Below the pieces are notes generated by a model that saw only the letters and a list, made by a program, of their open reading frames with translations, was not told the DNA's origin and did no database searches. 64,000 nucleotides of DNA from Candidatus Iainarchaeum sp. (lineage in GTDB: Archaea > Iainarchaeota > Iainarchaeia > Iainarchaeales > JAXPJC01), in contig JACPJC010000006.1 in NCBI GenBank assembly GCA_016187745.1, forward strand, positions 26,747 to 90,746. Reading direction: 5' to 3'. Positions 6,121 through 48,490 of the stretch are shown here, one piece after another (the stretch's first letter is position 1; each line of letters begins with the position of its first letter). The translations under genes and the position numbers were made by a program.

Positions 6121-6284
6121 GTTCATTTCTGTTCACATCCCTGCTTATTAACCTGCTCATTCGGTGCATTCGGCCATAAAAAAGGTGTTTTTTGGACATT
6201 TGCCTTGTTCATTCCTGTTCAGCCCCCTGCTTATTAACAGTTCATGTGCATATCTGGCTATGGAAAAAGTGGTTTTTGGGCATT
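6121..6284 (+). repeat. Imperfect tandem duplication (about 80 bp x2) spanning the promoter and start of the surface-protein gene
   Basis: Copy A at 6121-6200 and copy B at 6207-6284 are about 75% identical. Copy B carries the ATG at 6260. Copy A has ATA in the equivalent position. Confidence 0.6.
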
Positions 6285-14567: not shown

Positions 14568-14599
14568 AGGGAAGGTATCGGAAACGCAGTTTCTGATTG
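14568..14599 (+). repeat. Type-1 30-nt palindromic element, copy a (leader of rpl3 operon)
   Basis: agggaaggtatcggaaacgcagtttctgattg. The core ATCGGAAAC-gca-GTTTCTGAT forms a 9-bp stem. It is flanked by aatgcag on both sides. Confidence 0.8.
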
Positions 14600-17037: not shown

Positions 17038-17757
17038 ATGGGAAAGAGACTTAAACAGCAGCGCAGGGGAAAGGGCAGCCCGATGTTCATAGCAAGGCAC
17101 GGCATTGCTGATGTCGAATATCTGCCAATAACTCCGGAACAGAATGAGGGAACGCTCAGGGGTAAGGTTGTTGATTTGGTTCCTGATAAAGTCAGGAGCG
17201 CTGTGCTTGCGGATATTTTGTTTGAGAACGGGCTGCGCTCATATATGATTGCGCCGGAAGGGATGTTTGTGGGGCAGGAACTTCATTACGGCAGGAAAGC
17301 GCCATTGGAAATAGGGAACGTACTGCCATTGAATGAGATTGCGGAGGGCTGCCCGATATTCAATATAGAAAAGCGCCCTGGAGATGGGGGGTGTTATATT
17401 AAAACTTCCGGTATTTATGGATATATTGTAACAAAGGAGCCTGGAAGGGTTTATGTAAAGCTGCCGAGCGGAAAAACGGTTGAGATTTCCCCGGAATCGC
17501 GCGCCACAATAGGGAATATTTCCGCGGGGGGAAGGACTGAAAAGCCCATGCTCAAGGCAGGAACGCATTATCATGCGATGCACGCAAAGGGCTACCATTA
17601 CCCCGGGGTAAGGGGCGTTGCAATGAATCCTGTTGACCATCCGTTTGGGGGCGCGCAGCACCATGCGGGAAAATCCAAGAGCGTTTCAAGGCATGCCGCT
17701 CCAGGGCAGAAGGTTGGGGCAATAGCAAGCAAGCGCACAGGGAGAACAAAGAGGTAG
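17038..17757 (+). CDS. rpl2: Ribosomal protein L2
   Basis: uL2 homology (GRNAGG..., HPFGGGQ-like region). Confidence 0.92.
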   Translation: MGKRLKQQRRGKGSPMFIARHGIADVEYLPITPEQNEGTLRGKVVDLVPDKVRSAVLADILFENGLRSYMIAPEGMFVGQELHYGRKAPLEIGNVLPLNEIAEGCPIFNIEKRPGDGGCYIKTSGIYGYIVTKEPGRVYVKLPSGKTVEISPESRATIGNISAGGRTEKPMLKAGTHYHAMHAKGYHYPGVRGVAMNPVDHPFGGAQHHAGKSKSVSRHAAPGQKVGAIASKRTGRTKR

Positions 17758-17763
17758 AGGCAA

Positions 17764-18171
17764 ATGGTAAAAAAGGATTTTGCATTCCGCGGGCATCCTA
17801 TTGAGGAACTGCTAAAGCTTTCTGACAAGGACTTTTCCAAGCTCATATGCTCAAGGTCCCGCAGGACTCTGTTGCGCAGCGGAATGGACAAGAAGATTGA
17901 GAAGAAAATCGAGAAGGCGCATGCGCTCTTGCAGCAGGGAAGGGAGGCAAAGCCCATCCGCACGCATCTGCGCAACATAATTGTTGTGCCGAGGATGGTC
18001 GGATTGAGGTTTGCAGTGCACAGGGGAAACACATTTGAGATTATAGGGATCATGCCGGAGATGCTCGGGCATTTCCTCGGGGAATTTGCGCTTACAAGGA
18101 AGAAGATGATGCACGGGAGAGCGGGAATCGGCGCGACAAAATCATCAACCGCGATAACCGCAAGAGGATAA
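17764..18171 (+). CDS. rps19: Ribosomal protein S19
   Basis: uS19 homology. Confidence 0.9.
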   Translation: MVKKDFAFRGHPIEELLKLSDKDFSKLICSRSRRTLLRSGMDKKIEKKIEKAHALLQQGREAKPIRTHLRNIIVVPRMVGLRFAVHRGNTFEIIGIMPEMLGHFLGEFALTRKKMMHGRAGIGATKSSTAITARG

Positions 18172-18183
18172 AGGGGAAGGAAA

Positions 18184-18660
18184 ATGGTAAAAAGGGATTA
18201 TAATTTTGATTTTTCCGCCGTAAATCCGAAAAGGAGCGCGAGGGCAATACTGGCAAACCAGCCGGTTTCGCTGAAATATTCCGTTGAGCTTTGCAGGGAA
18301 CTGAAGGGAAAAAGCACGAAGAACGCGGAGGCCTTCCTCAATGACCTGAAGGAAATGCGCGCGTTTTTGCCATTGAGGAAATACCGCAAGAAGGTTCCGC
18401 ATCGCGCCGGGGAGCCTAAAAGCAAGGCAAAGGCCGGGCGCTATCCCATAAAGGCTGCGGCGAAATTCCTGGATCTGCTGAAGCTTGTGAAGGCAAATGC
18501 GGATGTTAAAGGATTGGATGCGGGAAAGCTGCGAATAGTGCACCTGTTCGCTTCCCAGGGCTTTCACAGGAGAGGCATGCAGGCGCAGGGAAGAATCTCC
18601 GGAAAACAGCGCAAGAGAAAATCAACGCACCTTGAAATAGTCGTGCAAGAGGCGGGATAA
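18184..18660 (+). CDS. rpl22: Ribosomal protein L22
   Basis: uL22 homology. Confidence 0.88.
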   Translation: MVKRDYNFDFSAVNPKRSARAILANQPVSLKYSVELCRELKGKSTKNAEAFLNDLKEMRAFLPLRKYRKKVPHRAGEPKSKAKAGRYPIKAAAKFLDLLKLVKANADVKGLDAGKLRIVHLFASQGFHRRGMQAQGRISGKQRKRKSTHLEIVVQEAG

Positions 18661-20243: not shown

Positions 20244-20570
20244 ATGGCTGAAGAGCAAAAAAAGGAAGTTATCGGAAACGCAGTTTCTGATTGCAAGGAT
20301 TTGAAATGCCCGGTTCACGGAAGCGTAAAAGTGAGGGGCAATATGTTTGAAGGAATTGCAATAAGGGCAAAGGCGCCGAAAACAGTGATTGTTGAGCGCT
20401 ATCTAATGCAGCATGTGAGGAAATACGAGAGATACAAGAAAGTTAGGTCGAGGATTACGGCGCACAAGCCGGACTGCATTCAGGTTGCTATCGGGGATAA
20501 AGTGAGGATTGGCGAAACGCGCAAGCTCAGCAAGACAAAGAGCTTTGTGGTTATGGAGGTGCTTAAGTAA
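20244..20570 (+). CDS. rps17: Ribosomal protein S17
   Basis: uS17 homology (MAEEQKKEVIGNAVSDCKDLKCPVHGSVKVRG...). The true start is the ATG at 20244 inside the longer listed ORF. Confidence 0.9.
   Translation: MAEEQKKEVIGNAVSDCKDLKCPVHGSVKVRGNMFEGIAIRAKAPKTVIVERYLMQHVRKYERYKKVRSRITAHKPDCIQVAIGDKVRIGETRKLSKTKSFVVMEVLK
20263..20293 (+). repeat. Type-1 30-nt element, copy b, lying inside the rps17 coding sequence (codons 7-16)
   Basis: aggaagttatcggaaacgcagtttctgattg encodes KEVIGNAVSDC. It is identical to the intergenic copies except for one base. Confidence 0.8.
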
Positions 20571-25135: not shown

Positions 25136-25848
25136 GTGCGAAAAAGTTATCAGTTGAAGAGCCGGAGCTTTCTGCATCCGAAAGGCTGCTGAGGCAGAAT
25201 GAAGAGGAGCTTCAGAAGAAGCTTGCGGCATGGGCGCCGAAGACCGAGTTGGGAAGGATGGTGCAGCGCTCCGAAATTACCGAAATGGACCAGATTTTCG
25301 AAAACAATTACAAGATACTTGAGCCGGAAATAATTGACTTCATGCTGCCTAACCTTGAGGAAAAGATTGTTGAATCGACAAAAACAACAAGGGTTAGAAG
25401 GGCCGGAAGGCAGTTCTCGTTCAGGACGGCCGTCCTTGTGGGGGACAGGAACGGCCATATCGGCCTTGGAATCGGAACTGACAGGGAGAGGCTTCCTGCG
25501 GTGCAGAAGGCAACGGAGAATGCGAAAATGCATCTGATGAGGATTAACAGGGGCTGCGGAAGCTGGGAGTGCAGGTGCAGCATGCAGCATTCTGTGCCTT
25601 ATAAAATAGAGGGGCGATGCGCTTCCGTAAGGATTGTTCTGATGCCCGCGCCAAAAGGAACCGGGCTTGTTGTGGGGGAAGAAACAAAGGAAGTCCTGGA
25701 AACCGCGGGAATAACAGACGTGTGGAGCAGGACAAAGGGAAGCACGGCAACAAAGCTTAATTTTGTGAAGGCGACAATAAATGCGCTTGCAAACATATCC
25801 AAGGTGCATATTTCTGAAAACATGTCAAGAAAGCTGGAAGTGAAATGA
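25132..25848 (+). CDS. rps5: Ribosomal protein S5
   Basis: uS5 homology. Confidence 0.92.
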   Translation: MSAKKLSVEEPELSASERLLRQNEEELQKKLAAWAPKTELGRMVQRSEITEMDQIFENNYKILEPEIIDFMLPNLEEKIVESTKTTRVRRAGRQFSFRTAVLVGDRNGHIGLGIGTDRERLPAVQKATENAKMHLMRINRGCGSWECRCSMQHSVPYKIEGRCASVRIVLMPAPKGTGLVVGEETKEVLETAGITDVWSRTKGSTATKLNFVKATINALANISKVHISENMSRKLEVK

Positions 25849-26312
25849 AAATGTACGCCGCAATAATGGTAAGGGGATTGATAGGCGCGAAAAAGGACGC
25901 AAAAATGGCGATGAGGCTTATGCGCCTGAACAAGCAGAACCACCTTGTGCTGCTGCCTGAAAATGATAGCAACAAGGGAACGCTCGAGAAGGTCCAGAGC
26001 TATGTTACCTATGGAAAGATTGCGAATGATGTGCTTGCAGGGCTTGTTGAAAAATGGGCAAGGCTCATTGGAAATAAGAAAATTGATGCGGAGTTCCTGA
26101 AGAAAAACAAGTTCGGGAATTTCAATGAGCTTGCAAATGCTCTTATCGATGGGAAAACTTCGCTTGCGGAGCTGCAGATAAAGCCGGTGTTCAGGCTGCA
26201 TGCGCCGAGCAAGGGGTATGAGAGAAAGGGCACAAAAAAGCCTTTTTCACTAGGGGGCGCGCTTGGCCCGAGGGAGAATGAAATAAACAAATTGATTATG
26301 AGGATGATTTAG
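25845..26312 (+). CDS. rpl30: Ribosomal protein L30
   Basis: uL30 homology. Confidence 0.88.
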   Translation: MKMYAAIMVRGLIGAKKDAKMAMRLMRLNKQNHLVLLPENDSNKGTLEKVQSYVTYGKIANDVLAGLVEKWARLIGNKKIDAEFLKKNKFGNFNELANALIDGKTSLAELQIKPVFRLHAPSKGYERKGTKKPFSLGGALGPRENEINKLIMRMI

Positions 26313-26397
26313 AATGAAGGAAGGGAATCAGGATTAACCTAAAACTGAAGGGAAACCTTGGTTTCCCTGCGGTTTGGATGAGGATGATTTAGAATGA
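26298..26397 (+). repeat. 20-bp direct repeat (atgaggatgatttagaatga) flanking a 60-bp insert between rpl30 and rpl15
   Basis: Exact copies at 26298-26317 and 26378-26397. The repeat spans the rpl30 stop codon and the rpl15 start codon. Confidence 0.85.
26318..26377 (+). repeat. Type-2 about 60-nt element, copy A (contains hairpin GGGAAACC-ttgg-TTTCCC)
   Basis: aggaagggaatcaggattaacctaaaactgaagggaaaccttggtttccctgcggtttgg. It has a homolog at 32323-32384. Confidence 0.75.
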
Positions 26398-26843
26398 CTG
26401 TGCGAAAAAGGAAAAGGAAAAACAAGCTGCGCGGTTCGCGCACTTTCGGAACCGGAAATACCAAGCATAAGCGCGGCTCAGGATGCAGGGGCGGAAAGGG
26501 AAGGGCCGGAAGCCACAAGCACAAGTATTCCAAATATTACGATACGTTTGGAGTAACGCTGAGGCTGAAGCCAAGGAAACTCAAGGGGAATGAAATGAAC
26601 CTCTGGCAGGTTGATGAAAACATCGAAGGCTGGCTTTCCGGAAAAATGATTGAGAAGAGCGGCGACGCTTACGTAATTGACTGCAAAAAGCTCGGAATAA
26701 GGAAAATACTTTCAAAGGGGAATCTTGCAAGGAAAGTTATCCTGAGGAATGCGCAGCTAAGCGAAAAGGCAAGGGAAAAAATAATCGCATCAAAGGGAAT
26801 CATTGAGGAAGCAGGGGAGAAAAAGGAGAAGGGTGAAAAATGA
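26394..26843 (+). CDS. rpl15: Ribosomal protein L15
   Basis: uL15 homology. Confidence 0.9.
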   Translation: MTVRKRKRKNKLRGSRTFGTGNTKHKRGSGCRGGKGRAGSHKHKYSKYYDTFGVTLRLKPRKLKGNEMNLWQVDENIEGWLSGKMIEKSGDAYVIDCKKLGIRKILSKGNLARKVILRNAQLSEKAREKIIASKGIIEEAGEKKEKGEK

Positions 26844-28210
26844 GCATCCTTGATGTTTTTGAGCCAATTTACAAGCTGCTTCCTGAGGTGAAGAGCCCGG
26901 AAGTAAAGCCGGCGCTTAAGCGCAGGCTCATGTGGAGTGCGCTGGCGCTCCTGCTGTTTTTCATAATGGGCAATATTACTGTCTATGGGATTGACCTTTC
27001 AAGAAGCCTGGGGGGCAATCTCGCGGCATTTGAGCTCATACTTGCAAGCAAGATTGGAAGCCTTATAACTGTGGGAATAGGCCCGATAGTGCTCGCATCA
27101 ATCATACTGCAGATGCTTGTGGGGGGCAAAATAATAAACATAGACCTTTCAAACCCAAAGGACAGGGCGCGCTTCACGAGCATGCAGAAGCTGTTTGGGA
27201 TCGTGCTTTGCTTCTTCGAGGCATTTGTATATTCCGCATTCGGGTTTTTGGTTCCAGATTCGGGAATGCTTCTGCCTGTAATCCTGCAGATAGCATTCGG
27301 CGCAATAATCCTGATATATCTGGATGAAGTTGTTTCAAAGTATGGAATAGGCTCTGGAATCGGATTGTTTATTGCAGGCGGAGTCGCAGGCTCAATAGGA
27401 TGGCGCATTTTCGCCCCTTACCTTGTCACAAACGTTGGAATAGTTGAGGGCCTGCTGCTGCAGATTGTTGGGGAGGCGGTGAAGGGAAGCCTGCTCAATG
27501 CGTTTGTCCTGTCGGTTCCGATAATATTTGTGATTGTGATTTTTCTCGTGGTTGTTTTTGCGGAGGGAATGCACGTAAATATCCCGATTACCGTAGGGAG
27601 GAGCGGGGCGACATCGCGCTTCCCCGTGAAATTCCTCTATGTGAGCAACCTTCCAGTTATACTTGCAATGGCGCTGTATGCGAACCTGCAGATGTGGGCG
27701 ATAGCGGGCGCAAATATCCCAATACTCGGAACAATGCTCGGCGCAGTAAGCTATGCAACTGCAATCCCGAGGGTCGGGGGAACAGCGCTCTTTGAGGCGA
27801 TTTTCCTGCAGGGGCTTTCGGGAATTGTGATTGCTGAAATCCTGCATGCGGTGCTTTATATTGCGGTCTTTGTTGTCATTTGCGTTGTTTTCGGAAAATT
27901 CTGGGTGGAGATGGCAGGGCAGGGGCCTGCGGCAATTTCAGAGCAATTGCAGAAAGCCGGAATGTCTATTCCTGGATTCAGGAAGGACCCGCGCATCATA
28001 AGGCAGATTTTGGATAGGTACATTCCGCCAATTACAATCCTTGGGAGCGCATTTGTTGCGCTGCTTGCGGGGCTTGCGGATTTGACCGGAGCACTTGGGA
28101 GCGGGACGGGAATACTTCTGACTGTTGGAATTGTTTACAGGCTTTATGAGGAACTTGCAAGGGAGCAGCTCATGGAAATGCACCCGTTGCTTGGGAGACT
28201 TTTCAAATGA
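26840..28210 (+). CDS. secY: Preprotein translocase SecY
   Basis: 10-TM SecY/Sec61alpha homology. Confidence 0.95.
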   Translation: MSILDVFEPIYKLLPEVKSPEVKPALKRRLMWSALALLLFFIMGNITVYGIDLSRSLGGNLAAFELILASKIGSLITVGIGPIVLASIILQMLVGGKIINIDLSNPKDRARFTSMQKLFGIVLCFFEAFVYSAFGFLVPDSGMLLPVILQIAFGAIILIYLDEVVSKYGIGSGIGLFIAGGVAGSIGWRIFAPYLVTNVGIVEGLLLQIVGEAVKGSLLNAFVLSVPIIFVIVIFLVVVFAEGMHVNIPITVGRSGATSRFPVKFLYVSNLPVILAMALYANLQMWAIAGANIPILGTMLGAVSYATAIPRVGGTALFEAIFLQGLSGIVIAEILHAVLYIAVFVVICVVFGKFWVEMAGQGPAAISEQLQKAGMSIPGFRKDPRIIRQILDRYIPPITILGSAFVALLAGLADLTGALGSGTGILLTVGIVYRLYEELAREQLMEMHPLLGRLFK

Positions 28211-28244
28211 CTAAGTGGAAGTTTGAGGAAACGGAGGGTTTCTG

Positions 28245-28739
28245 ATGTGGCAACTGATAAATCCTACAATTGATATTCTGCTGATTTCAATAGGCATAGC
28301 TGCGGTATCGCAGCTGTTCCAGATGAAATTTACAGACAGGAAAAAAATGCGAGCAATGCAGAAGGAAATGAAGGACAAGCAGAAGAGAATGCGCGAGCTT
28401 GCGGGAAAAACCGATGCTAACGCGCTTGCGGAAATCAAGAAACTCGAGCAGGAGATGATGCATGCGCTCAATGAGAGCATGAAGCACAGCATGGGCAGCA
28501 TGATAAAGCTTATGCCGCTTACAGTAATTTTCCTGTTTGTTTACTGGCTGCTTGGCAGCGCCTATGGGAGCAGCGCGGTGCCAACGCTTTTCCCAATAAG
28601 CATAGTCAAGCCCGCAATGGGCTGGATATGGTGGTATGTGATATGCGTATTTATAGCAAGCATTGTAATAAGCGCATTAACGAATGCTGTTGAGAACAGG
28701 ATGGAATCAAAAGCGCAGGGAGTTGCAAAAAATGGTTGA
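28245..28739 (+). CDS. DUF106-family membrane protein (archaeal YidC/Oxa1-like insertase homolog)
   Basis: 3-TM protein with a coiled-coil cytoplasmic loop in the conserved post-secY slot. No adk lies between them. Confidence 0.6.
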   Translation: MWQLINPTIDILLISIGIAAVSQLFQMKFTDRKKMRAMQKEMKDKQKRMRELAGKTDANALAEIKKLEQEMMHALNESMKHSMGSMIKLMPLTVIFLFVYWLLGSAYGSSAVPTLFPISIVKPAMGWIWWYVICVFIASIVISALTNAVENRMESKAQGVAKNG

Positions 28740-29073
28740 ACCTAAGAAAAGGAATATGAAAAGGCGCTATGTGAGGACCTCGGGCGGAGTGGTAAGGCTG
28801 CATTTCGGAAAGCGCAAGTCCTCAAAGCACGAATGCGCGCTTTGCGGAAGGACAATGCACGGGATGCTCCACGGCTCGGGAATAAGCGAGGCGCATGATG
28901 CGGCAAAGACGGAAAAAAGGCCAAGCGCACTGCTCGCAGGCGCATTATGCAACAAATGCAGGGCAGTGGCAACAGAAGAGGCGATAAAAGTAAAGCACGG
29001 AATAAAGCCGATTGATGAGGTTGATCTGGGCTTCAGGAAATACGCTGAAATGATAATGAAGAGGATTGAGTGA
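28732..29073 (+). CDS. rpl34e: Ribosomal protein L34e
   Basis: eL34 homology with a C4 zinc ribbon (CALCG...CNKC). Confidence 0.8.
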   Translation: MVEPKKRNMKRRYVRTSGGVVRLHFGKRKSSKHECALCGRTMHGMLHGSGISEAHDAAKTEKRPSALLAGALCNKCRAVATEEAIKVKHGIKPIDEVDLGFRKYAEMIMKRIE

Positions 29074-29552
29074 ATATGATAGTAACAATATCGGGCCTGC
29101 CGGGAACGGATGCAAGGGAGATCTGCAAGCAGATAGCGCTTGAATTCAACCTGCAGTATGTTTCCCTTGAGCAGATAGGAAAGGGGATTGCGCTTCCGGG
29201 CAATGCCGCAAGGATTTCAGAAATGCTCAAGGCGGCAGTGCGCAGGAAAAACTGCATAGTGGAGCATGCGCTCGCGGGAATAATGCTCAGCAATGCGGAT
29301 GCGAAGGTCTTCCTGCTTTCATTCAGGCTCAACAGGGCGAGGATGCTTTCCAAGCGCGAAAAAATAGAATTCGATGCCGCGCTCGGAAAAATCGAGGGCG
29401 AAGAGGAAATCCTGGGGAAAATCGCATCAGACGAACTTGGGATTGGAATGGACAGCCTTAATCCCTATGACCTTGTGCTTAACTCTGACAAAATCGGCAG
29501 CAATGATGCGGCGGAGCTAATAAAGAATTACATAAAGAGGGCCGTTGCATAA
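29070..29552 (+). CDS. cmk: Cytidylate kinase (archaeal type)
   Basis: P-loop TISGLPGTD. Conserved L34e-cmk-L14e order. Confidence 0.75.
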   Translation: MNMIVTISGLPGTDAREICKQIALEFNLQYVSLEQIGKGIALPGNAARISEMLKAAVRRKNCIVEHALAGIMLSNADAKVFLLSFRLNRARMLSKREKIEFDAALGKIEGEEEILGKIASDELGIGMDSLNPYDLVLNSDKIGSNDAAELIKNYIKRAVA

Positions 29553-29571
29553 ATTTTAGGGAGGGAAAAAA

Positions 29572-29793
29572 ATGCCTGCGCTTGAAGTTGGAAGAATCTG
29601 CGTGAAAACGCGCGGAAGGAATGCCGGAAAGAGGGTAGCAATAGTGGAAATGCAGAAGAATTTTGCGGTAATTGACGCGCCGAACATGAAGAGGAAGCGC
29701 TGCAACATCCTGCACCTGATTCCGCTTGAGGAGAAGATTGATGTGAACAAGGGCACAAGCCATGAGGAAATTGCAAAAATTATGAAAAAATAG
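29572..29793 (+). CDS. rpl14e: Ribosomal protein L14e
   Basis: eL14 KOW domain. Confidence 0.82.
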   Translation: MPALEVGRICVKTRGRNAGKRVAIVEMQKNFAVIDAPNMKRKRCNILHLIPLEEKIDVNKGTSHEEIAKIMKK

Positions 29794-29823
29794 TGGAAAA
29801 TAGTTTGTGTTTTTAAATAGAAT

Positions 29824-30387
29824 ATGGGGAAAATTAATATGGTTGAAGGAAAAATTGCAGAAAATCCGGATGAAATCCGCTATATTGTCAGGATTGTCGG
29901 AAAGGACCTTAACGGCCTTTCCCCAATATGGCATGCGCTTCTTGGAATAAAGGGGATAGGGCAGAGAATGGCAATAATGATGGCAAGGGCATTTGAAAGC
30001 AGGACAGGAATCGGATATGATGCTAAGCTCGGGGAGATTCCAGAGGACAAGCACAAGGTGCTTGAGGATATTGTGATGCACCCGGGGAATTATGGCATTC
30101 CCTCCTGGGCATTCAACAGGGGGAAGGATATTGAGAGCGGGAAAGACATGCATCTCGTAATGTCGGAGCTTGATTTTTCATTGCGCAATGACTTGCAGAG
30201 GCTGAGGGAAATAAAGACCTACAGGGGGATGAGGCACACCTGGGGGCTTCCGGTAAGGGGCGGAAAAACAAGGACAAGGGCAAGGAAGCGCGGCGTTTCC
30301 GTCGGAGTGGAGAAGAAGGCTGCAAAGGCCGCAATGGCCCCGAAGGCCGGGGAAAAGGCAGAGGCAAAAGAGGAAAAAAAGAAGTGA
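29824..30387 (+). CDS. rps13: Ribosomal protein S13
   Basis: uS13 homology. Confidence 0.9.
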   Translation: MGKINMVEGKIAENPDEIRYIVRIVGKDLNGLSPIWHALLGIKGIGQRMAIMMARAFESRTGIGYDAKLGEIPEDKHKVLEDIVMHPGNYGIPSWAFNRGKDIESGKDMHLVMSELDFSLRNDLQRLREIKTYRGMRHTWGLPVRGGKTRTRARKRGVSVGVEKKAAKAAMAPKAGEKAEAKEEKKK

Positions 30388-30393
30388 TGAACA

Positions 30394-31002
30394 ATGGGCG
30401 ATCCTAAAAGGGCCGAAAGGCAGTATGAAATTCCCAGGAAGCACTGGGATCTTGCCATAATAGAGAATGAGCGCAAGACCATGGAGACCTATGGCCTGAA
30501 AAACAAGCGCGAGCTGCACCACCTGCAGGCGATTGTAAAGACCAAAAGGCACAATGCGAGAAGTTTGCTTGCGCTTTCCGCGGAACAGCGCGTGAAAAGG
30601 CAGTCCGAACTTCTTAAAAGCCTTGAGAGAATAGGATTGCTGCCGGAGCATGCTACGCTTGATGATGTTTTGGTTCTTTCAATTGAGGAATTGCTCGAAA
30701 GGCGCCTCCAAACTGTAGTGTGGAGGAAAGGGCTTGCAAATACGATAGGGCAGGCAAGGCAGTTCATAGTGCACGGGCATATTGCGGTTAACGGCAGAAA
30801 AATTGACCGGCCGGGCTACATAGTTTCAAAAGGCGAGGAAGAAAAGGTCGCATATTATGGGAAGCAAATGCAGCTTGCGGCAAAGGAAAAGGTTGAGGAA
30901 ATTAAAAAAGGGCAGGATGCGGAGGCGCAGGGAACTGAGGAAGCGGAAGCCGCATCGGGGGAAACTGCCGAAGAGGCAATAAATATGGAAGAGGCGTCTT
31001 AA
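30394..31002 (+). CDS. rps4: Ribosomal protein S4, with acidic C-terminal tail
   Basis: uS4 homology. Confidence 0.9.
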
Positions 31003-31003
31003 A

Positions 31004-31396
31004 ATGAGCGATGAGGAAAAGCGCGGGATTCTGCACATATATGCGAGCCATAACAACACGATTCTCCTGCTTACTGATGTGAGCGGCGCGGAAACAATTG
31101 CAAAATGCTCCGGGGGAATAGTTGTAAAGGCGCAGCACAAGGAGGCTTCTCCGTATGCGGCAATGAAGGTTGCGGAGGTTGTTGCGGAGAAGGCAAGGGA
31201 GCGCGGAATCAGGTTCATTGATGTCAAGGTGAGGGCATCCGGAGGCACAAAGCTAAAATCCCCGGGTCCGGGGGCTGAAGCCGCAATCCGCTCGCTGACA
31301 AGGCAGGGGCTTATAATAAGGAACATTGAGAATGTAACTCCGATGCCGCATGACGGGACAAGAAGGAAAAGGAAATACAGGAGCAAAAAAAAGTAA
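31004..31396 (+). CDS. rps11: Ribosomal protein S11
   Basis: uS11 homology. Confidence 0.92.
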
Positions 31397-31450
31397 ATAT
31401 TAATTTTTCCTGAAAGAAGGGAAATTAATAAGAAACCGGAGGTTTCTTAT

Positions 31451-32200
31451 ATGGATGTAAAAAAAATTGCACAGAAGGAAAATACCCTTAAATTCCTTGT
31501 AAGGGGGGTAAATTCCGAATTTGCGAATTCCCTGCGCAGGGCAATAATGGCTGATGTGCCCATACTTGCGATAGAGGATGTTTCAGTATATGAAAATTCC
31601 TCAATATTATATGATGAGTTCCTTACCCAGAGGCTTGCATTGATTCCATTGACAACAGATTTGAAAACATACAAGAAGGGTGAATCCGCTAAAATGAGCA
31701 TCGATAAGGAAGGGCCCTGCACGGTCTATTCAAAGGACATAAAATGCAGCGATCCGAAAATTGAGGTAGCGGACAAGCGCATTCCGATTGTCAAATTGCT
31801 GAAGGACCAGAAATTAAAGCTTGAGATGAAGGCAGTAATGGGCTTCGGGAAGGAGCATGCGAAATGGCAGCCTGCGGTTGTTTCCTACAGGCAGCTTGCA
31901 ACAATAAGCATTGGGAAGGACTGCGACCTGTGCGGGAAATGCATTGAGAACTGCGCAAAGAAGCTTCTGGAGGCAAAGGCAAAGAAGATTGTCCTGGAAA
32001 CGCCGATTGAATGCGATTTGTGCGGAAAATGCAGGGATGTGTGCAACCTGCAGCAGCTTGCGATAGAATACAGCAAGGATGATTTTTTGTTCACTGTGGA
32101 AAGCCACGGGGCCCTTGAGGCCTCTGAAATAGTGGAAAAGGCTGCGGAAATCCTGAAAGACAGGAATTCGGACTTCAGGAAGGAGATTAAAAAATTATAA
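31451..32200 (+). CDS. rpoD: DNA-directed RNA polymerase subunit D (with ferredoxin-like Cys domain)
   Basis: Rpb3/RpoD homology. CDLCGKCIENC...CDLCGKCRDVC cluster. Confidence 0.9.
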   Translation: MDVKKIAQKENTLKFLVRGVNSEFANSLRRAIMADVPILAIEDVSVYENSSILYDEFLTQRLALIPLTTDLKTYKKGESAKMSIDKEGPCTVYSKDIKCSDPKIEVADKRIPIVKLLKDQKLKLEMKAVMGFGKEHAKWQPAVVSYRQLATISIGKDCDLCGKCIENCAKKLLEAKAKKIVLETPIECDLCGKCRDVCNLQQLAIEYSKDDFLFTVESHGALEASEIVEKAAEILKDRNSDFRKEIKKL

Positions 32201-32288
32201 CATTACAATCAGAAACTGCGTTTCCGATACCTTCCTTTGTTTCAAGGGAAACTCGGACGAGGAGATTAATAAATTATAACATTACAAT
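32184..32288 (+). repeat. About 27-bp direct repeat (gagattaa[a/t]aaattataacattacaat) flanking a 52-bp insert at the rpoD 3' end
   Basis: Copies at 32184-32209 and 32262-32288 have 1 mismatch. Each spans the last 5 codons and the stop of rpoD. Confidence 0.8.
32206..32236 (-). repeat. Type-1 30-nt element, copy c (opposite orientation)
   Basis: The reverse complement is ggaaggtatcggaaacgcagtttctgattg. Confidence 0.8.
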
Positions 32289-32322
32289 TATTATGGGAAA
32301 GCCCGGTGGAATCCTGAACCTT

Positions 32323-32384
32323 AAGGGAAAGGGTCAGGATTAGCCTAAAACTGGGGAAAACCGTAGGTTTTCCGCGGTTTGGAT
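32323..32384 (+). repeat. Type-2 element, copy B, ending exactly at tRNA 5' end
   Basis: aagggaaagggtcaggattagcctaaaactggggaaaaccgtaggttttccgcggtttggat is about 80% identical to 26318-26377. Confidence 0.75.
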
Positions 32385-32526
32385 GCAGGGGTACCCAAGC
32401 GGCCAAAGGGGCAGGTGAGTTTTGATTTGAAAAAAACAAAATTCTGCCAAACTTAAGGTCTCTTGAAAAAAGGATGGGAAATCCTGTGGCTTAGTGCCTT
32501 CAAGGGTTCAAATCCCTTCCCCTGCA
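32385..32526 (+). tRNA. Type II tRNA (Leu-like; A73, long variable arm) with intron(s); anticodon tentatively UAA
   Basis: Acceptor GCAGGGG/CCCCTGC. 3-bp D-stem CCC/GGG with an 11-nt loop. T-arm AAGGG-TTCAAAT-CCCTT. Variable arm GGC-TTAGT-GCC. The precursor is 142 nt. The only good anticodon loop is CTTAAGG at 32452-32458, which would require two introns (32417-32451 and 32459-32481). Confidence 0.7.
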
Positions 32527-32535
32527 CACCAATCC

Positions 32536-32558
32536 CTTTTCTTTTAGGAAAAGAAAAG
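32536..32558 (+). terminator. Hairpin CTTTTCTTTT-agg-AAAAGAAAAG after tRNA
   Basis: Perfect 10-bp stem of the same sequence family as the hairpins at 3276-3365. Confidence 0.5.
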
Positions 32559-32651
32559 ATCTGGGTTTTACCCCAAAAGAAAATAAAAAATAAAATTCAG
32601 GGAAAGAGAAAATAATTTTCGGAAAAAAAATAAAAAATCGGGAATGAGAAA

Positions 32652-33020
32652 ATGAAAGTTACAGGGCCTACGGAACTCGGAACTCAGGTTCTTATAAGAA
32701 GGCTTGAGAAGCTCGGAAAAAGCAGCGGGCAGGCCATGTGGCTTGACCTTGCGGAAAGGCTGGGAAAGCCGCGCAGGATAAGGCCTTCGGTTAATTTGTG
32801 GAAGCTCGGGAAAATGGCAAAGAAATTCCCGGGAAAAACATTGCTTGTTCCGGGGAAGGTGCTTGGCTCGGGCTCGCTGGATTCCGCGCTTTCAATATGC
32901 GCGCTTGAATTTTCCGCTGGCGCAATGAAAAAAATCTCCGGGCACAAGGGAAAGGCGCTGACGCTGGATGAATTCGTAGGAAAGCCCGCAGATGCGAAGG
33001 ACATTGCAATAATAAAGTGA
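32652..33020 (+). CDS. rpl18e: Ribosomal protein L18e
   Basis: eL18 homology. Confidence 0.85.
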   Translation: MKVTGPTELGTQVLIRRLEKLGKSSGQAMWLDLAERLGKPRRIRPSVNLWKLGKMAKKFPGKTLLVPGKVLGSGSLDSALSICALEFSAGAMKKISGHKGKALTLDEFVGKPADAKDIAIIK

Positions 33021-33451
33021 TTTTTATGACAACAATAAATGCAGAAAACCTGATTCTGGGAAAGCTTGCGACAAATGTTGCAAAGCGCCTTATTTCAGGG
33101 GAAACCATAGCCATTGCAAACGCGGAAAAATCCGTAATGCTCGGGACAAAAGAGGCAAAGGCATACAAGTTCAAGGTGAGGCTGGGAATCGCGTACAAGG
33201 GGATGCCTGAGCGCGGGCCGAAATACTCGAACAGGCCTGAAACCATAATGAGATATGCAATAAGGGGCATGCTGCCAATGGAAAGGGCCTCGGGGAGGGA
33301 TGCATTCAGAAGGCTGAAGGTTTATTCAGGCCTGCCAATGGAGCTTAAGGACAGGAATTTAAAAACAGTTCCTGATGCAAAGTGTAAAAGCGACAGGTTT
33401 GTTTATCTGGAAGAGGTTTGCAAGCATCTGGGATATGAGGCGAAAGCATGA
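33017..33451 (+). CDS. rpl13: Ribosomal protein L13
   Basis: uL13 homology. Confidence 0.9.
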   Translation: MIFMTTINAENLILGKLATNVAKRLISGETIAIANAEKSVMLGTKEAKAYKFKVRLGIAYKGMPERGPKYSNRPETIMRYAIRGMLPMERASGRDAFRRLKVYSGLPMELKDRNLKTVPDAKCKSDRFVYLEEVCKHLGYEAKA

Positions 33452-33882
33452 GCGCGGAGCAGAAGGCATCAAAAAAGGCAAGGCGCAAGGGCGTTGTAAC
33501 AAAGGCAAGGCGCAAGACCGCAATAGCGCACGCCATTCTCAGAAAGGGCACCGGGAAAATAAGGGTGAACAGGATGCTCCTTGGAATTGTGCAGCCAAGG
33601 TATGTGCAATTGCTCATAAAGGAGCCTATAACACTTGCGGGGGAGCTTGCAAATGACATTGATGTTGATGTAAGCGTAAAGGGCTCGGGGCAGATGGCGC
33701 AGGCGGTTGCCGCGCGCGGAGCAATAGCAAAGGCGCTGGTCGCATACACCAATAGCCCTAAGCTTAAAAAGGAATTCCTGGATTACAACAGGATGCTTAT
33801 TGTTGATGACATAAGGCAGACCGAGCCCAAGAAGCCTTTGGGAAAAGGCGCAAGGGCAAAGAAGCAGAAATCAAAGAGATGA
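33448..33882 (+). CDS. rps9: Ribosomal protein S9
   Basis: uS9 homology with a basic C-terminus. Confidence 0.9.
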   Translation: MSAEQKASKKARRKGVVTKARRKTAIAHAILRKGTGKIRVNRMLLGIVQPRYVQLLIKEPITLAGELANDIDVDVSVKGSGQMAQAVAARGAIAKALVAYTNSPKLKKEFLDYNRMLIVDDIRQTEPKKPLGKGARAKKQKSKR

Positions 33883-48459: not shown

Positions 48460-48490
48460 AGGAAGGTATCGGAAACGTAGTTTCTGATGA
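48460..48490 (+). repeat. Type-1 30-nt element, copy d (between rpoE and spt4)
   Basis: aggaaggtatcggaaacgtagtttctgatga has one C-to-T change relative to the other copies. It is flanked by atgaaa on both sides. Confidence 0.75.

Follow-up and report, generated by a model that had tools for sequence, protein, structure and literature searches.

A structured 60-nucleotide insertion between rpl30 and rpl15 of a DPANN archaeon and its family of candidate mobile elements

A small insertion at a ribosomal-protein gene junction was analyzed in a stretch of 64,000 nucleotides (nt) from Candidatus Iainarchaeum sp. (contig JACPJC010000006.1 of assembly GCA_016187745.1), referred to as the window. The window carries an archaeal spc-type ribosomal-protein cluster with the gene order L19e, L18, S5, L30, L15 and SecY (26840-28210), and an insert of 60 nt (26318-26377) separates the L30 stop from the L15 start. 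On both sides the insert is bordered by the 20-mer ATGAGGATGATTTAGAATGA, whose two copies are 100% identical and lie 80 nt apart from start to start. The exact 20-bp duplication around a hairpin-bearing 60-bp insert, which had been pointed out in a first-pass annotation, was thereby reproduced in coordinates and identity (Table 1). When up to three mismatches were allowed, these two copies were still the only matches in the window, with a chance expectation of 0.02 and none of 100 shuffles giving two.

The L30 open reading frame (ORF) ends inside the first repeat copy (...MRMI-stop; ..ATG AGG ATG ATT TAG), and the second copy supplies the rpl15 ATG together with its upstream Shine-Dalgarno-like GAGGA. 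As the stop of L30 and the ribosome-binding site plus start codon of L15 are all part of the duplicated target, the two genes are intact and the insertion is tolerated. The first copy also retains an orphaned version of the L15 GAGGA and ATG; this ATG opens a 7-codon ORF (26314-26337, MKEGNQD-stop), which is a by-product of the duplicated L15 start.

Filled and empty sites in relatives

The 20-nt repeat equals k-1 for assemblers run at k=21 and the source is a metagenome-assembled genome (MAG), so that an assembly artefact or a simple local tandem duplication had to be considered. Four other sequencing runs, as assembled in Logan (L001, L002, L003 and L005; such labels denote retrieved sequence stretches or assemblies), show an identical 81-nt gap between L30 and L15. 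One of these, L005, represents a diverged strain in which L30 ends in LIERMI-stop, the upstream repeat copy (...GAAAGGATGATTTAGAATGA) differs at its 5' end, the shared repeat is 17 nt long and the element carries an A-to-G substitution at an otherwise family-invariant core base. Moreover, the 60 nt are homologous to more than 100 loci elsewhere, which is beyond the reach of a local duplication. The chance that either of these trivial origins accounts for the repeat is considered negligible.

The SecY protein of the window is 100% identical to that of a Candidatus Diapherotrites (DPANN) MAG. The nearest relative found has a SecY of 85% identity and is represented by six assemblies (L006-L011) from ENA and JGI. 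In all six, a single nucleotide separates the L30 stop from the L15 start (...GAGAGGATGATTTAGgATGACTG) and no insert is present; the adjacency that the first-pass annotation had expected for this gene pair is therefore found in the relative, and the interrupted arrangement is not common to all relatives. The relative in turn carries the element at its L5/S14 junction, where it is flanked twice by GGAAGTGAAATGAGC, and at its L6/L32e junction, where it is flanked by GGGATGA.AA.ATGAAGGAAGA. The repeats at these two copies are 15-23 nt long, and both junctions are uninterrupted in the window strain. The L30/L15 insertion is genuine and specific to the lineage, and it duplicated 18-20 nt of its target; the reciprocal pattern of filled and empty sites in close relatives shows that the element is mobile. 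As one part of the overall explanation developed below, and with the same moderate confidence, the insertion is placed after the split of the window's Diapherotrites lineage from the relative with the 85% identical SecY. The presence/absence polymorphism and the mutated invariant core base in L005 argue that the L30/L15 copy is neutral baggage, probably without a function for the host.

The repetitive nature of the element also affects assemblies. In a scaffold of L008 (1480-1640), a run of N links the L6/L32e copy to a different copy that adjoins a tRNA; the repeat family causes scaffolding chimeras.

Table 1. Features of the rpl30-rpl15 junction and of the second element copy (window coordinates; CM, covariance model).
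Feature	Position	Strand	Basis
rpl30 (uL30)	25845..26312	+	ORF and translation; Pfam Ribosomal_L30 on the identical gene in L001
Direct repeat copy 1, upstream target-site duplication	26298..26317	+	Exact repeat search
Purine run AGGAAGGGAA of the element	26318..26327	+	Family-wide mirror covariation; CM match 26316-26377
Conserved core TCAGGATTAACCTAAAACTG	26328..26347	+	Invariant alignment columns; RNAalifold consensus; pattern matches in the window at 26328 and 32334 only
Variable hairpin, upper P2: AGGGAAAC-CTTG-GTTTCCCT	26349..26368	+	7-8 covarying pairs family-wide; minimum free energy fold
Exact element 3' end GCGGTTTGG	26369..26377	+	Alignment; RNAalifold; downstream repeats start there
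Direct repeat copy 2, downstream	26378..26397	+	Exact repeat search
rpl15 (uL15), intact	26394..26843	+	ORF; Pfam Ribosomal_L27A on the identical gene in L001
Second element copy	32322..32382	+	CM R1, 68.2 bits, E=3e-16
Intron-containing class II (Leu/Ser-type) tRNA gene, between rpoD and rpl18e	32385..32526	+	Read from sequence

Fold and distribution of the element family

A degenerate pattern spanning the core and the tail of the element was used to scan the species-representative genomes of GTDB and matched at least 119 stretches, often with several copies per genome. Among the matches listed, all but one are located in archaeal MAGs, nearly all of them DPANN. Most are labelled Micrarchaeota, others Iainarchaeota/Diapherotrites, Altiarchaeota, Anstonellales, Norongarragalinales and, once, Nanoarchaeia, and a few are labelled only 'archaeon' or Euryarchaeota/Methanobacteriota. 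The sole non-archaeal match among those listed, on a Chitinophagaceae contig, has no G-rich hairpin and is probably due to chance. A narrower pattern matched 7 stretches in JGI metagenomes, including the sample with the 85% relative, and viral contigs of IMG/VR gave no match. A covariance model (R1) was built from 65 copies and returned exactly two matches over the window, both with E about 1e-16: the L30/L15 copy (67.9 bits) and a second copy in which the core TCAGGATTARCCTAAAACTG recurs at 32334. Whether the inserted sequence occurs elsewhere, as the first-pass annotation had asked, was thus answered by a copy 6 kb away and by a large structured family that extends across phyla.

All members share one plan of about 60-65 nt, consisting of an 8-12-nt purine run, the core TCAGGA..A.CCT.AAACTG, a variable hairpin and the 3' end GCGGTTYGG. 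The RNAalifold consensus contains a 3-bp mini-hairpin P1 (AGG/CCT) and a long helix P2, in which AACUG/CGGUU is joined to the variable stem across a purine·G mismatch. In the L30/L15 copy, P1 joins 26330-26332 with 26338-26340 and the core further provides AACTG (26343-26347) as the 5' strand of lower P2; an A·G mismatch (26348/26369) lies below the upper hairpin, and within GCGGTTTGG the nucleotides CGGTT (26370-26374) pair with AACTG and the last three are unpaired. The variable stem shows strong covariation: two-sided changes were counted in 151 cells versus 53.5 in shuffles, none of 500 shuffles reached the observed value, and 91.8% of cells pair as compared to at most 60% with slid partners.

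Mutual information uncovered a further relation, as the upstream purine run has the same base as the 5' arm of the hairpin in reversed reading and is therefore its mirror. Mirror identity was 0.81 at one register versus at most 0.62 at ten others, the phi coefficient for A versus G was 0.82 at the mirror register versus at most 0.28 elsewhere, and 21 of 29 distinct arm 7-mers are accompanied by a mirrored purine run that matches at six or more of the seven positions. The window copy agrees at all seven (AAGGGAA and AAGGGAA). Opposite an A-T pair, the purine run holds A 163 times, G 27 times, T 18 times and never C; opposite G, it holds G 653 times. T within the run is mainly found opposite A (18/27).

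A mirror repeat is unable to form Watson-Crick pairs. Such pairing of the purine run with the 3' arm was rejected: its antiparallel register reaches 0.835 through G runs meeting C runs in one subtype only. The relation that is consistent across subtypes is a purine run parallel to the 3' arm, which is to say the mirror of the 5' arm. In purine-type reverse-Hoogsteen triples the third strand is antiparallel to the purine strand (geometry as in PMC13541005), and the observed covariation conforms to an antiparallel third strand that places G against G-C pairs and either A or T against A-T pairs. The purine run is proposed to act as the third strand of an intramolecular triple helix with G·G-C, A·A-U/T and T·A-T triples. 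Covariation in the triple-like sets G/C/C, T/A/T and G/G/C was seen at three more positions, although these are three combinations only and could reflect shared ancestry.

Several copies deviate from the common plan. On the plus strand of L136 (1700-1830), a compound copy has one element in place of the hairpin of another, followed by two tails (GCGGTTTGG-T-GCGGTTCGG); on the minus strand of the same stretch (430-520), three units of purine run plus core form an array that ends in a single hairpin and tail. Around position 6400 of L013, the tail is expanded to GCGGTT(CGGTT)x5, a slippage at the 3' end motif.

Rfam 15 gave no match at the gathering threshold in the window and none at E<=10 at either copy (26000-33500). 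Literature searches, which included sequence motifs, returned no description of the element, none was present in the ARMAN tRNA-intron paper, and no archaeal intron in the literature searched is described as having the conserved 60-nt fold. Assignment to C/D box or H/ACA small RNAs was rejected, as inspection revealed neither a RUGAUGA/CUGA pairing pattern nor an ACA box and Rfam reported nothing. Self-cleaving ribozymes (hammerhead, hepatitis delta virus-like, twister, pistol and hatchet) were also rejected, since the order of helices does not fit by inspection and no Rfam matches were obtained. A promoter or terminator was rejected as well: neither a TATA-like box at a suitable distance from the tRNA beside the second copy nor a plus-strand oligo-T run was seen, and a scan for bacterial-type signals only gave nothing relevant.

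Insertion anatomy and the link to tRNA genes

The flanks of 117 copies were long enough to search for duplications. Direct flank repeats of at least 13 nt with at most one mismatch border 38 of them, in comparison to 0 of 231 mismatched controls. Repeat lengths are broadly distributed from 13 to 62 nt and do not correspond to a short duplication of fixed length. In local alignments of the flanks, 43 of 117 copies lie above the 99th percentile of the null, and the clearly decayed repeats among them indicate an age series of insertions. GCGGTTYGG is followed within 0-1 nt by the downstream repeat in most repeat-flanked copies. On the other side, 6-117 nt separate the upstream repeat from the core, and the sequence in between is unrelated from copy to copy and absent from empty sites. 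The 5' extension varies from 0 to about 100 nt, and a truncation series could not be demonstrated.

The duplicated sequence is different at every site (ribosomal-protein junctions, 3' parts of tRNAs and other genes), and is therefore derived from the target rather than from a fixed att site. The repeats often include a start codon or a gene junction, which we read as survivorship: in compact genomes, only those insertions that preserve both gene ends persist. No microhomology between tail and target was detected (mean of 2.6 matches in 8 versus 2.1 in the null). Terminal inverted repeats were not found, the 5' purine run and the 3' GCGGTTYGG not being reverse complements, and no neighboring protein family was enriched within about 8 kb of approximately 125 copies. 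Among the neighbors, an RtcB-type RNA ligase (annotated by sequence reading) lies within a few kb of the element at 3 of the approximately 125 loci, including L045, and ABCE1 (8 loci) and EF-2 (5 loci) recur near element copies. These recurrences probably represent conserved housekeeping neighborhoods.

The first-pass annotation had counted two insertions with a duplicated gene terminus in the window. Another one does exist at the end of rpoD, where 29-nt repeats of 97% identity (32181-32209 and 32260-32288; AGGAGATTAA(A/T)AAATTATAACATTACAAT) contain the rpoD stop and enclose a 50-nt insert (32210-32259), but its inserted sequence is unrelated to the L30/L15 element, has no match to CM R1 and is not a member of the family. 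The first 26-29 nt of this insert are the reverse complement of a 27-nt motif from the start of the S17 gene, to which a further 21 nt are added. This insertion hints at a host process that places short sequences with long duplications and that the element would exploit.

The 27-nt motif itself (GGAAGGTATCGGAAACGCAGTTTCTGA, with the hairpin CGGAAAC-GCA-GTTTCTG) occurs on the plus strand at 14571-14597, 20261-20291 and 48460-48488 with 96-100% identity. Its places are the N-terminal coding region of S17, the region upstream of rpl3 and the region between rpoE' and spt4, each time shortly after an ATG; the motif could be a regulatory operator or represent copies of a gene fragment. In the S17 gene of the 85% relative (L006, 1452-1502), a 51-nt in-frame insertion splits the motif and the protein has 125 amino acids, compared to 108 in the window strain. 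Two other repeats of the window were noted. At 6121-6238, 32-nt direct repeats of 88% identity lie 86 nt apart, and the homology extends into what follows each copy; a promoter and gene-start region has been duplicated in tandem here and has diverged, and no insertion is involved. Within the ribosomal cluster, two gene starts 420 nt apart (17743-17779 and 18163-18199) share a 37-nt start region (…GGCAAATGGTAAAAAAGGATT) of 76% identity, which encodes MVKKDF.. and MVKRDY.., respectively.

A strict T-arm test found tRNA pieces adjoining 17% of the copies versus 1-2% in the background, and three arrangements were observed. The element forms the 3' end of canonical 37/38 introns in tRNAs for Thr-CGU (L085, L030), Thr-UGU (L026), Lys-CUU (L069) and Ser (L052, L091, L122). 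It follows a complete tRNA and is in turn followed by a repeat of the tRNA 3' part in L080 (36 nt), L116 (26 nt), L047/L125 (21-27 nt) and also L094. Finally, it directly precedes the tRNA 5' end in L058, in L121 and at the second window copy, which ends 2 nt before the tRNA and differs from the L30/L15 copy in its hairpin arms (GGAAAACC/GGTTTTCC) and purine run. The tRNA gene at the latter site has the acceptor stem GCAGGGG...CCCCTGC-A, the T arm AAGGG-TTCAAAT-CCCTT and one or more long introns. It was missed by ARAGORN, scored 23.3 bits (E=0.26) against the Rfam tRNA model, which is below the gathering threshold, and showed no TATA-like box at a suitable distance by inspection.

In L122, the 5' part of the intron is a decayed copy of the 3' half of the tRNA itself (z=3.7; 4 of 500 shuffles). 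This observation suggests that a tRNA intron can arise when an insertion duplicates its target and the upstream duplicate then decays. No such residual duplicate was found in six other tRNA-intron copies, which were indistinguishable from shuffles. In L030, the tail CGG and one further G can form a canonical 4-bp central helix with the anticodon loop (CUCG/CGGG); such a helix cannot form in L026 and L085. The window copy differs in location from an intron with bulge-helix-bulge (BHB) boundaries, as it lies between the L30 stop and the L15 start. BHB excision of this copy was rejected because inspection showed no pairing between the boundary 4-mers GATT and TTGG, and a symmetric BHB within the element is prevented by three intervening nucleotides (GCG). 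Since both genes are intact, excision is not needed.

Two other motifs recur beside tRNAs in several DPANN lineages. One is a hairpin, CTTTTCTTTT-loop-AAAAGAAAAG, followed by GGGTT(T/C)A..AAAAGAAAA; the other, ACCCCAAAAGAAAA, is also present 20-40 nt upstream of many element copies. Their sites include 32530-32600 of the window, L094, L091, L069, L136, L034/L065/L072/L119 and L090/L102/L116, and they could be terminator/promoter signals or a further repeat family. At contig ends of Micrarchaeota MAG085 and a relative (L034, L065, L072 and L119), identical 51-nt tandem repeats (…GTCTGTATCAACCCCAAAAAGAAAAACAGATGTTGATAGTAATACAACAAG…) lie directly upstream of the element, and after it come tRNA 3' fragments beginning in the T loop; the contigs break there. 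These loci may be long T-loop introns or split tRNA genes.

Origin of the insertion and comparison with known systems

The L30/L15 insert is best explained as a copy of a non-autonomous, multi-copy, structured mobile element of DPANN archaea that spreads by copy-and-paste via a single-stranded intermediate, probably RNA. We place this explanation somewhat above even probability. A cut-and-paste transposase is disfavored by the exact 3' end, the variable 5' side, the variable duplications, the absence of inverted repeats and the lack of a linked enzyme. The G-rich strand would fold as a single strand into the two helices, with the 5' purine run lying antiparallel along the purine arm of the hairpin, and the intermediate would have its 3' end fixed at GCGGUUYGG. 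As the element 3' end coincides with the 3' splice site of introns or with the RNase P site, the likeliest intermediate would be an RNA that tRNA processing sets free, whether it forms the 3' end of an excised intron or a 5' leader removed by RNase P. Copying of this RNA into DNA would then begin at its 3' end, at staggered breaks and in a manner similar to target-primed or template-switching reverse transcription, and would yield both a variable 5' extent and target duplications of variable length. The triple helix may prolong the life of the molecule or may be the feature that is recognized.

Several observations weigh against this explanation. Two thirds of the copies have no detectable flank repeat, and the 5' extensions have unrelated sequences, whereas classical 5' truncation would leave nested pieces of a single longer one. 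Orientation relative to neighboring genes is modestly biased (same/same 24 versus opposite/opposite 6), and repeat-flanked copies at gene boundaries are found 10 times in sense and 5 times in antisense; strict co-orientation with host genes was rejected on account of this modest bias. The window has two copies only and no donor identical to the L30/L15 copy was found. The mechanism of mobility is deduced from the anatomy of the insertions. In addition, Semerad and Maher are said to have reported in 1994 that purine-motif triplexes are well documented for DNA and doubtful for strands made of RNA throughout. The fold may thus indicate single-stranded DNA, and the intermediate may for the same reason be of this kind.

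Alternatively, the element could be a derivative of a DNA transposon that resembles a miniature inverted-repeat transposable element (MITE) and is mobilized in trans by an unlinked, widely staggering transposase or integrase (a casposase, another Cas1-type enzyme or other), for which folded single-stranded DNA would be the recognition structure. The small size, the many non-autonomous copies, the flank duplications and the weak orientation bias with respect to genes would all suit this origin, as would the purine-motif triple helix, which is chemically likelier in DNA than in RNA. It is nevertheless regarded as unlikely, as the search for terminal inverted repeats was negative, neither the duplication length of 13-62 nt nor the 5' boundary is fixed, no transposase-like family is enriched near the approximately 125 copies and viral contigs contain none. 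Template switching during replication or repair, comparable to fork stalling and template switching or microhomology-mediated break-induced replication (FoSTeS/MMBIR-like), would require no dedicated machinery: structured DNA stalls forks, and nascent strands copy it and re-enter tens of bases behind. Duplications of variable length and filler-like 5' sequence are what such templated insertions would leave, and the rpoD-end insertion, with its 29-nt duplication around unrelated sequence that includes the antisense S17-start motif, the compound and stuttered arrays of L136 and the (CGGTT)5 tail of L013 fit them as well. However, the same 3' boundary nucleotide in dozens of independent insertions, without target microhomology, points to a molecule with a defined end, and conservation of sequence and structure across phyla with compensatory changes points to selection on the propagation of the element itself; this origin is accordingly held to be improbable.

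The insert could also have been kept by selection as a domesticated module of the operon, be it an RNA processing site between L30 and L15, a stabilizing structure or a regulator of L15 translation. Three ribosomal-protein junctions in two relatives carry the element, all in sense, and where it lies in tRNA genes the 3' end falls on sites of RNA processing. On the other hand, presence and absence differ between close relatives at all three junctions, the L005 strain has a substitution at an invariant core base, and the flank duplication alone accounts for tolerance. Furthermore, no BHB was seen at the boundaries, no oligo-T run was seen by inspection on the plus strand of the insert, and a promoter and terminator scan of the insert, which covers bacterial-type signals only, gave nothing relevant. 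We therefore consider domestication quite improbable.

In its boldest form, the preferred copy-and-paste explanation describes an archaeal retroposon: a selfish, nuclease-resistant RNA with a purine-motif triple helix that would be released by tRNA enzymes and copied back into the DNA of DPANN archaea. On landing at a tRNA, it would duplicate the 3' half, the upstream duplicate would decay, and this duplicate together with the element would become a new intron. This extended version is put forward tentatively and may well prove wrong. If true, it would make the mechanism by which archaeal tRNA introns and disrupted tRNA genes are born directly observable.

The element explains a puzzling class of small insertions that duplicate gene ends in archaea with very compact genomes. 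Since one gene's stop and the next gene's start are both included in the duplication, operons with tightly packed genes can take up such insertions. It represents a widespread family of about 60 nt that spans phyla, is absent from Rfam 15, displays unusually clear three-way covariation and is a candidate for a long purine-type triple helix, a structure that to our knowledge is rare or unknown in cellular RNAs. The exact 3' end, variable duplications, absence of inverted repeats and absence of an enzyme gene form a signature of retroposition, and we know of no such retroposon documented in archaea. Its position at the 3' end of tRNA introns, together with the intron that contains a decayed copy of the 3' exon, provides a testable route for the origin and spread of archaeal tRNA introns, which is a long-standing question. 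On the practical side, element copies break assemblies, mislead scaffolders and hide tRNA genes from standard finders.

Among known systems, short interspersed elements (SINEs) and other non-LTR (long terminal repeat) retroposons of eukaryotes, which use target-primed reverse transcription, share with the element its small size, non-autonomy, exact 3' end, variable 5' extent, absence of terminal inverted repeats, target duplications of variable length (13-62 nt) and link to tRNA genes and their processing. Unlike SINEs, it has no poly(A) tail or tail derived from a long interspersed element (LINE), no partner reverse transcriptase was identified, its 5' extensions are unrelated rather than clear truncations, it has a compact tertiary fold in place of a tRNA-derived promoter, and its host is archaeal. 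Archaeal BHB tRNA introns resemble it in that family members form the 3' end of 37/38 introns in several DPANN genomes and related sequences occur in different tRNAs; 'transposing' tRNA introns have been proposed for Thermoproteales (as cited in PMC3239211), and a model for how tRNA genes become disrupted has been described (PMC3293823). In contrast to such introns, the window copy lies between protein genes with no BHB seen at its boundaries, and copies outside tRNAs carry long target duplications, unlike known archaeal introns.

With MITEs and the REP/BIME, ERIC and Correia repeats, the element has in common that it is short, hairpin-bearing, multi-copy, located in intergenic regions or at junctions and polymorphic between relatives; it differs in lacking terminal inverted repeats, in its conservation across phyla and, compared to MITEs, in duplications that are far longer and more variable than the typical 2-10 bp. 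Integrative elements and casposons, which duplicate tRNA 3' ends or a 14-15 bp target, resemble the element in that its duplications are long and in some copies consist of the tRNA 3' part, but the element measures only 60-150 nt, encodes neither integrase nor Cas1 and has no fixed repeat length. The closest structural parallels are RNA triple-helix elements (ENE/MALAT1-type, riboswitch and group II/spliceosomal; reviewed in PMC13541005), with which it shares an intramolecular third strand on a hairpin and three-way covariation. Whereas the well-known natural RNA triplexes are of the pyrimidine type (U·A-U, C+·G-C), the putative third strand of the element is purine-rich and runs antiparallel to the purine arm over 7-10 consecutive positions.

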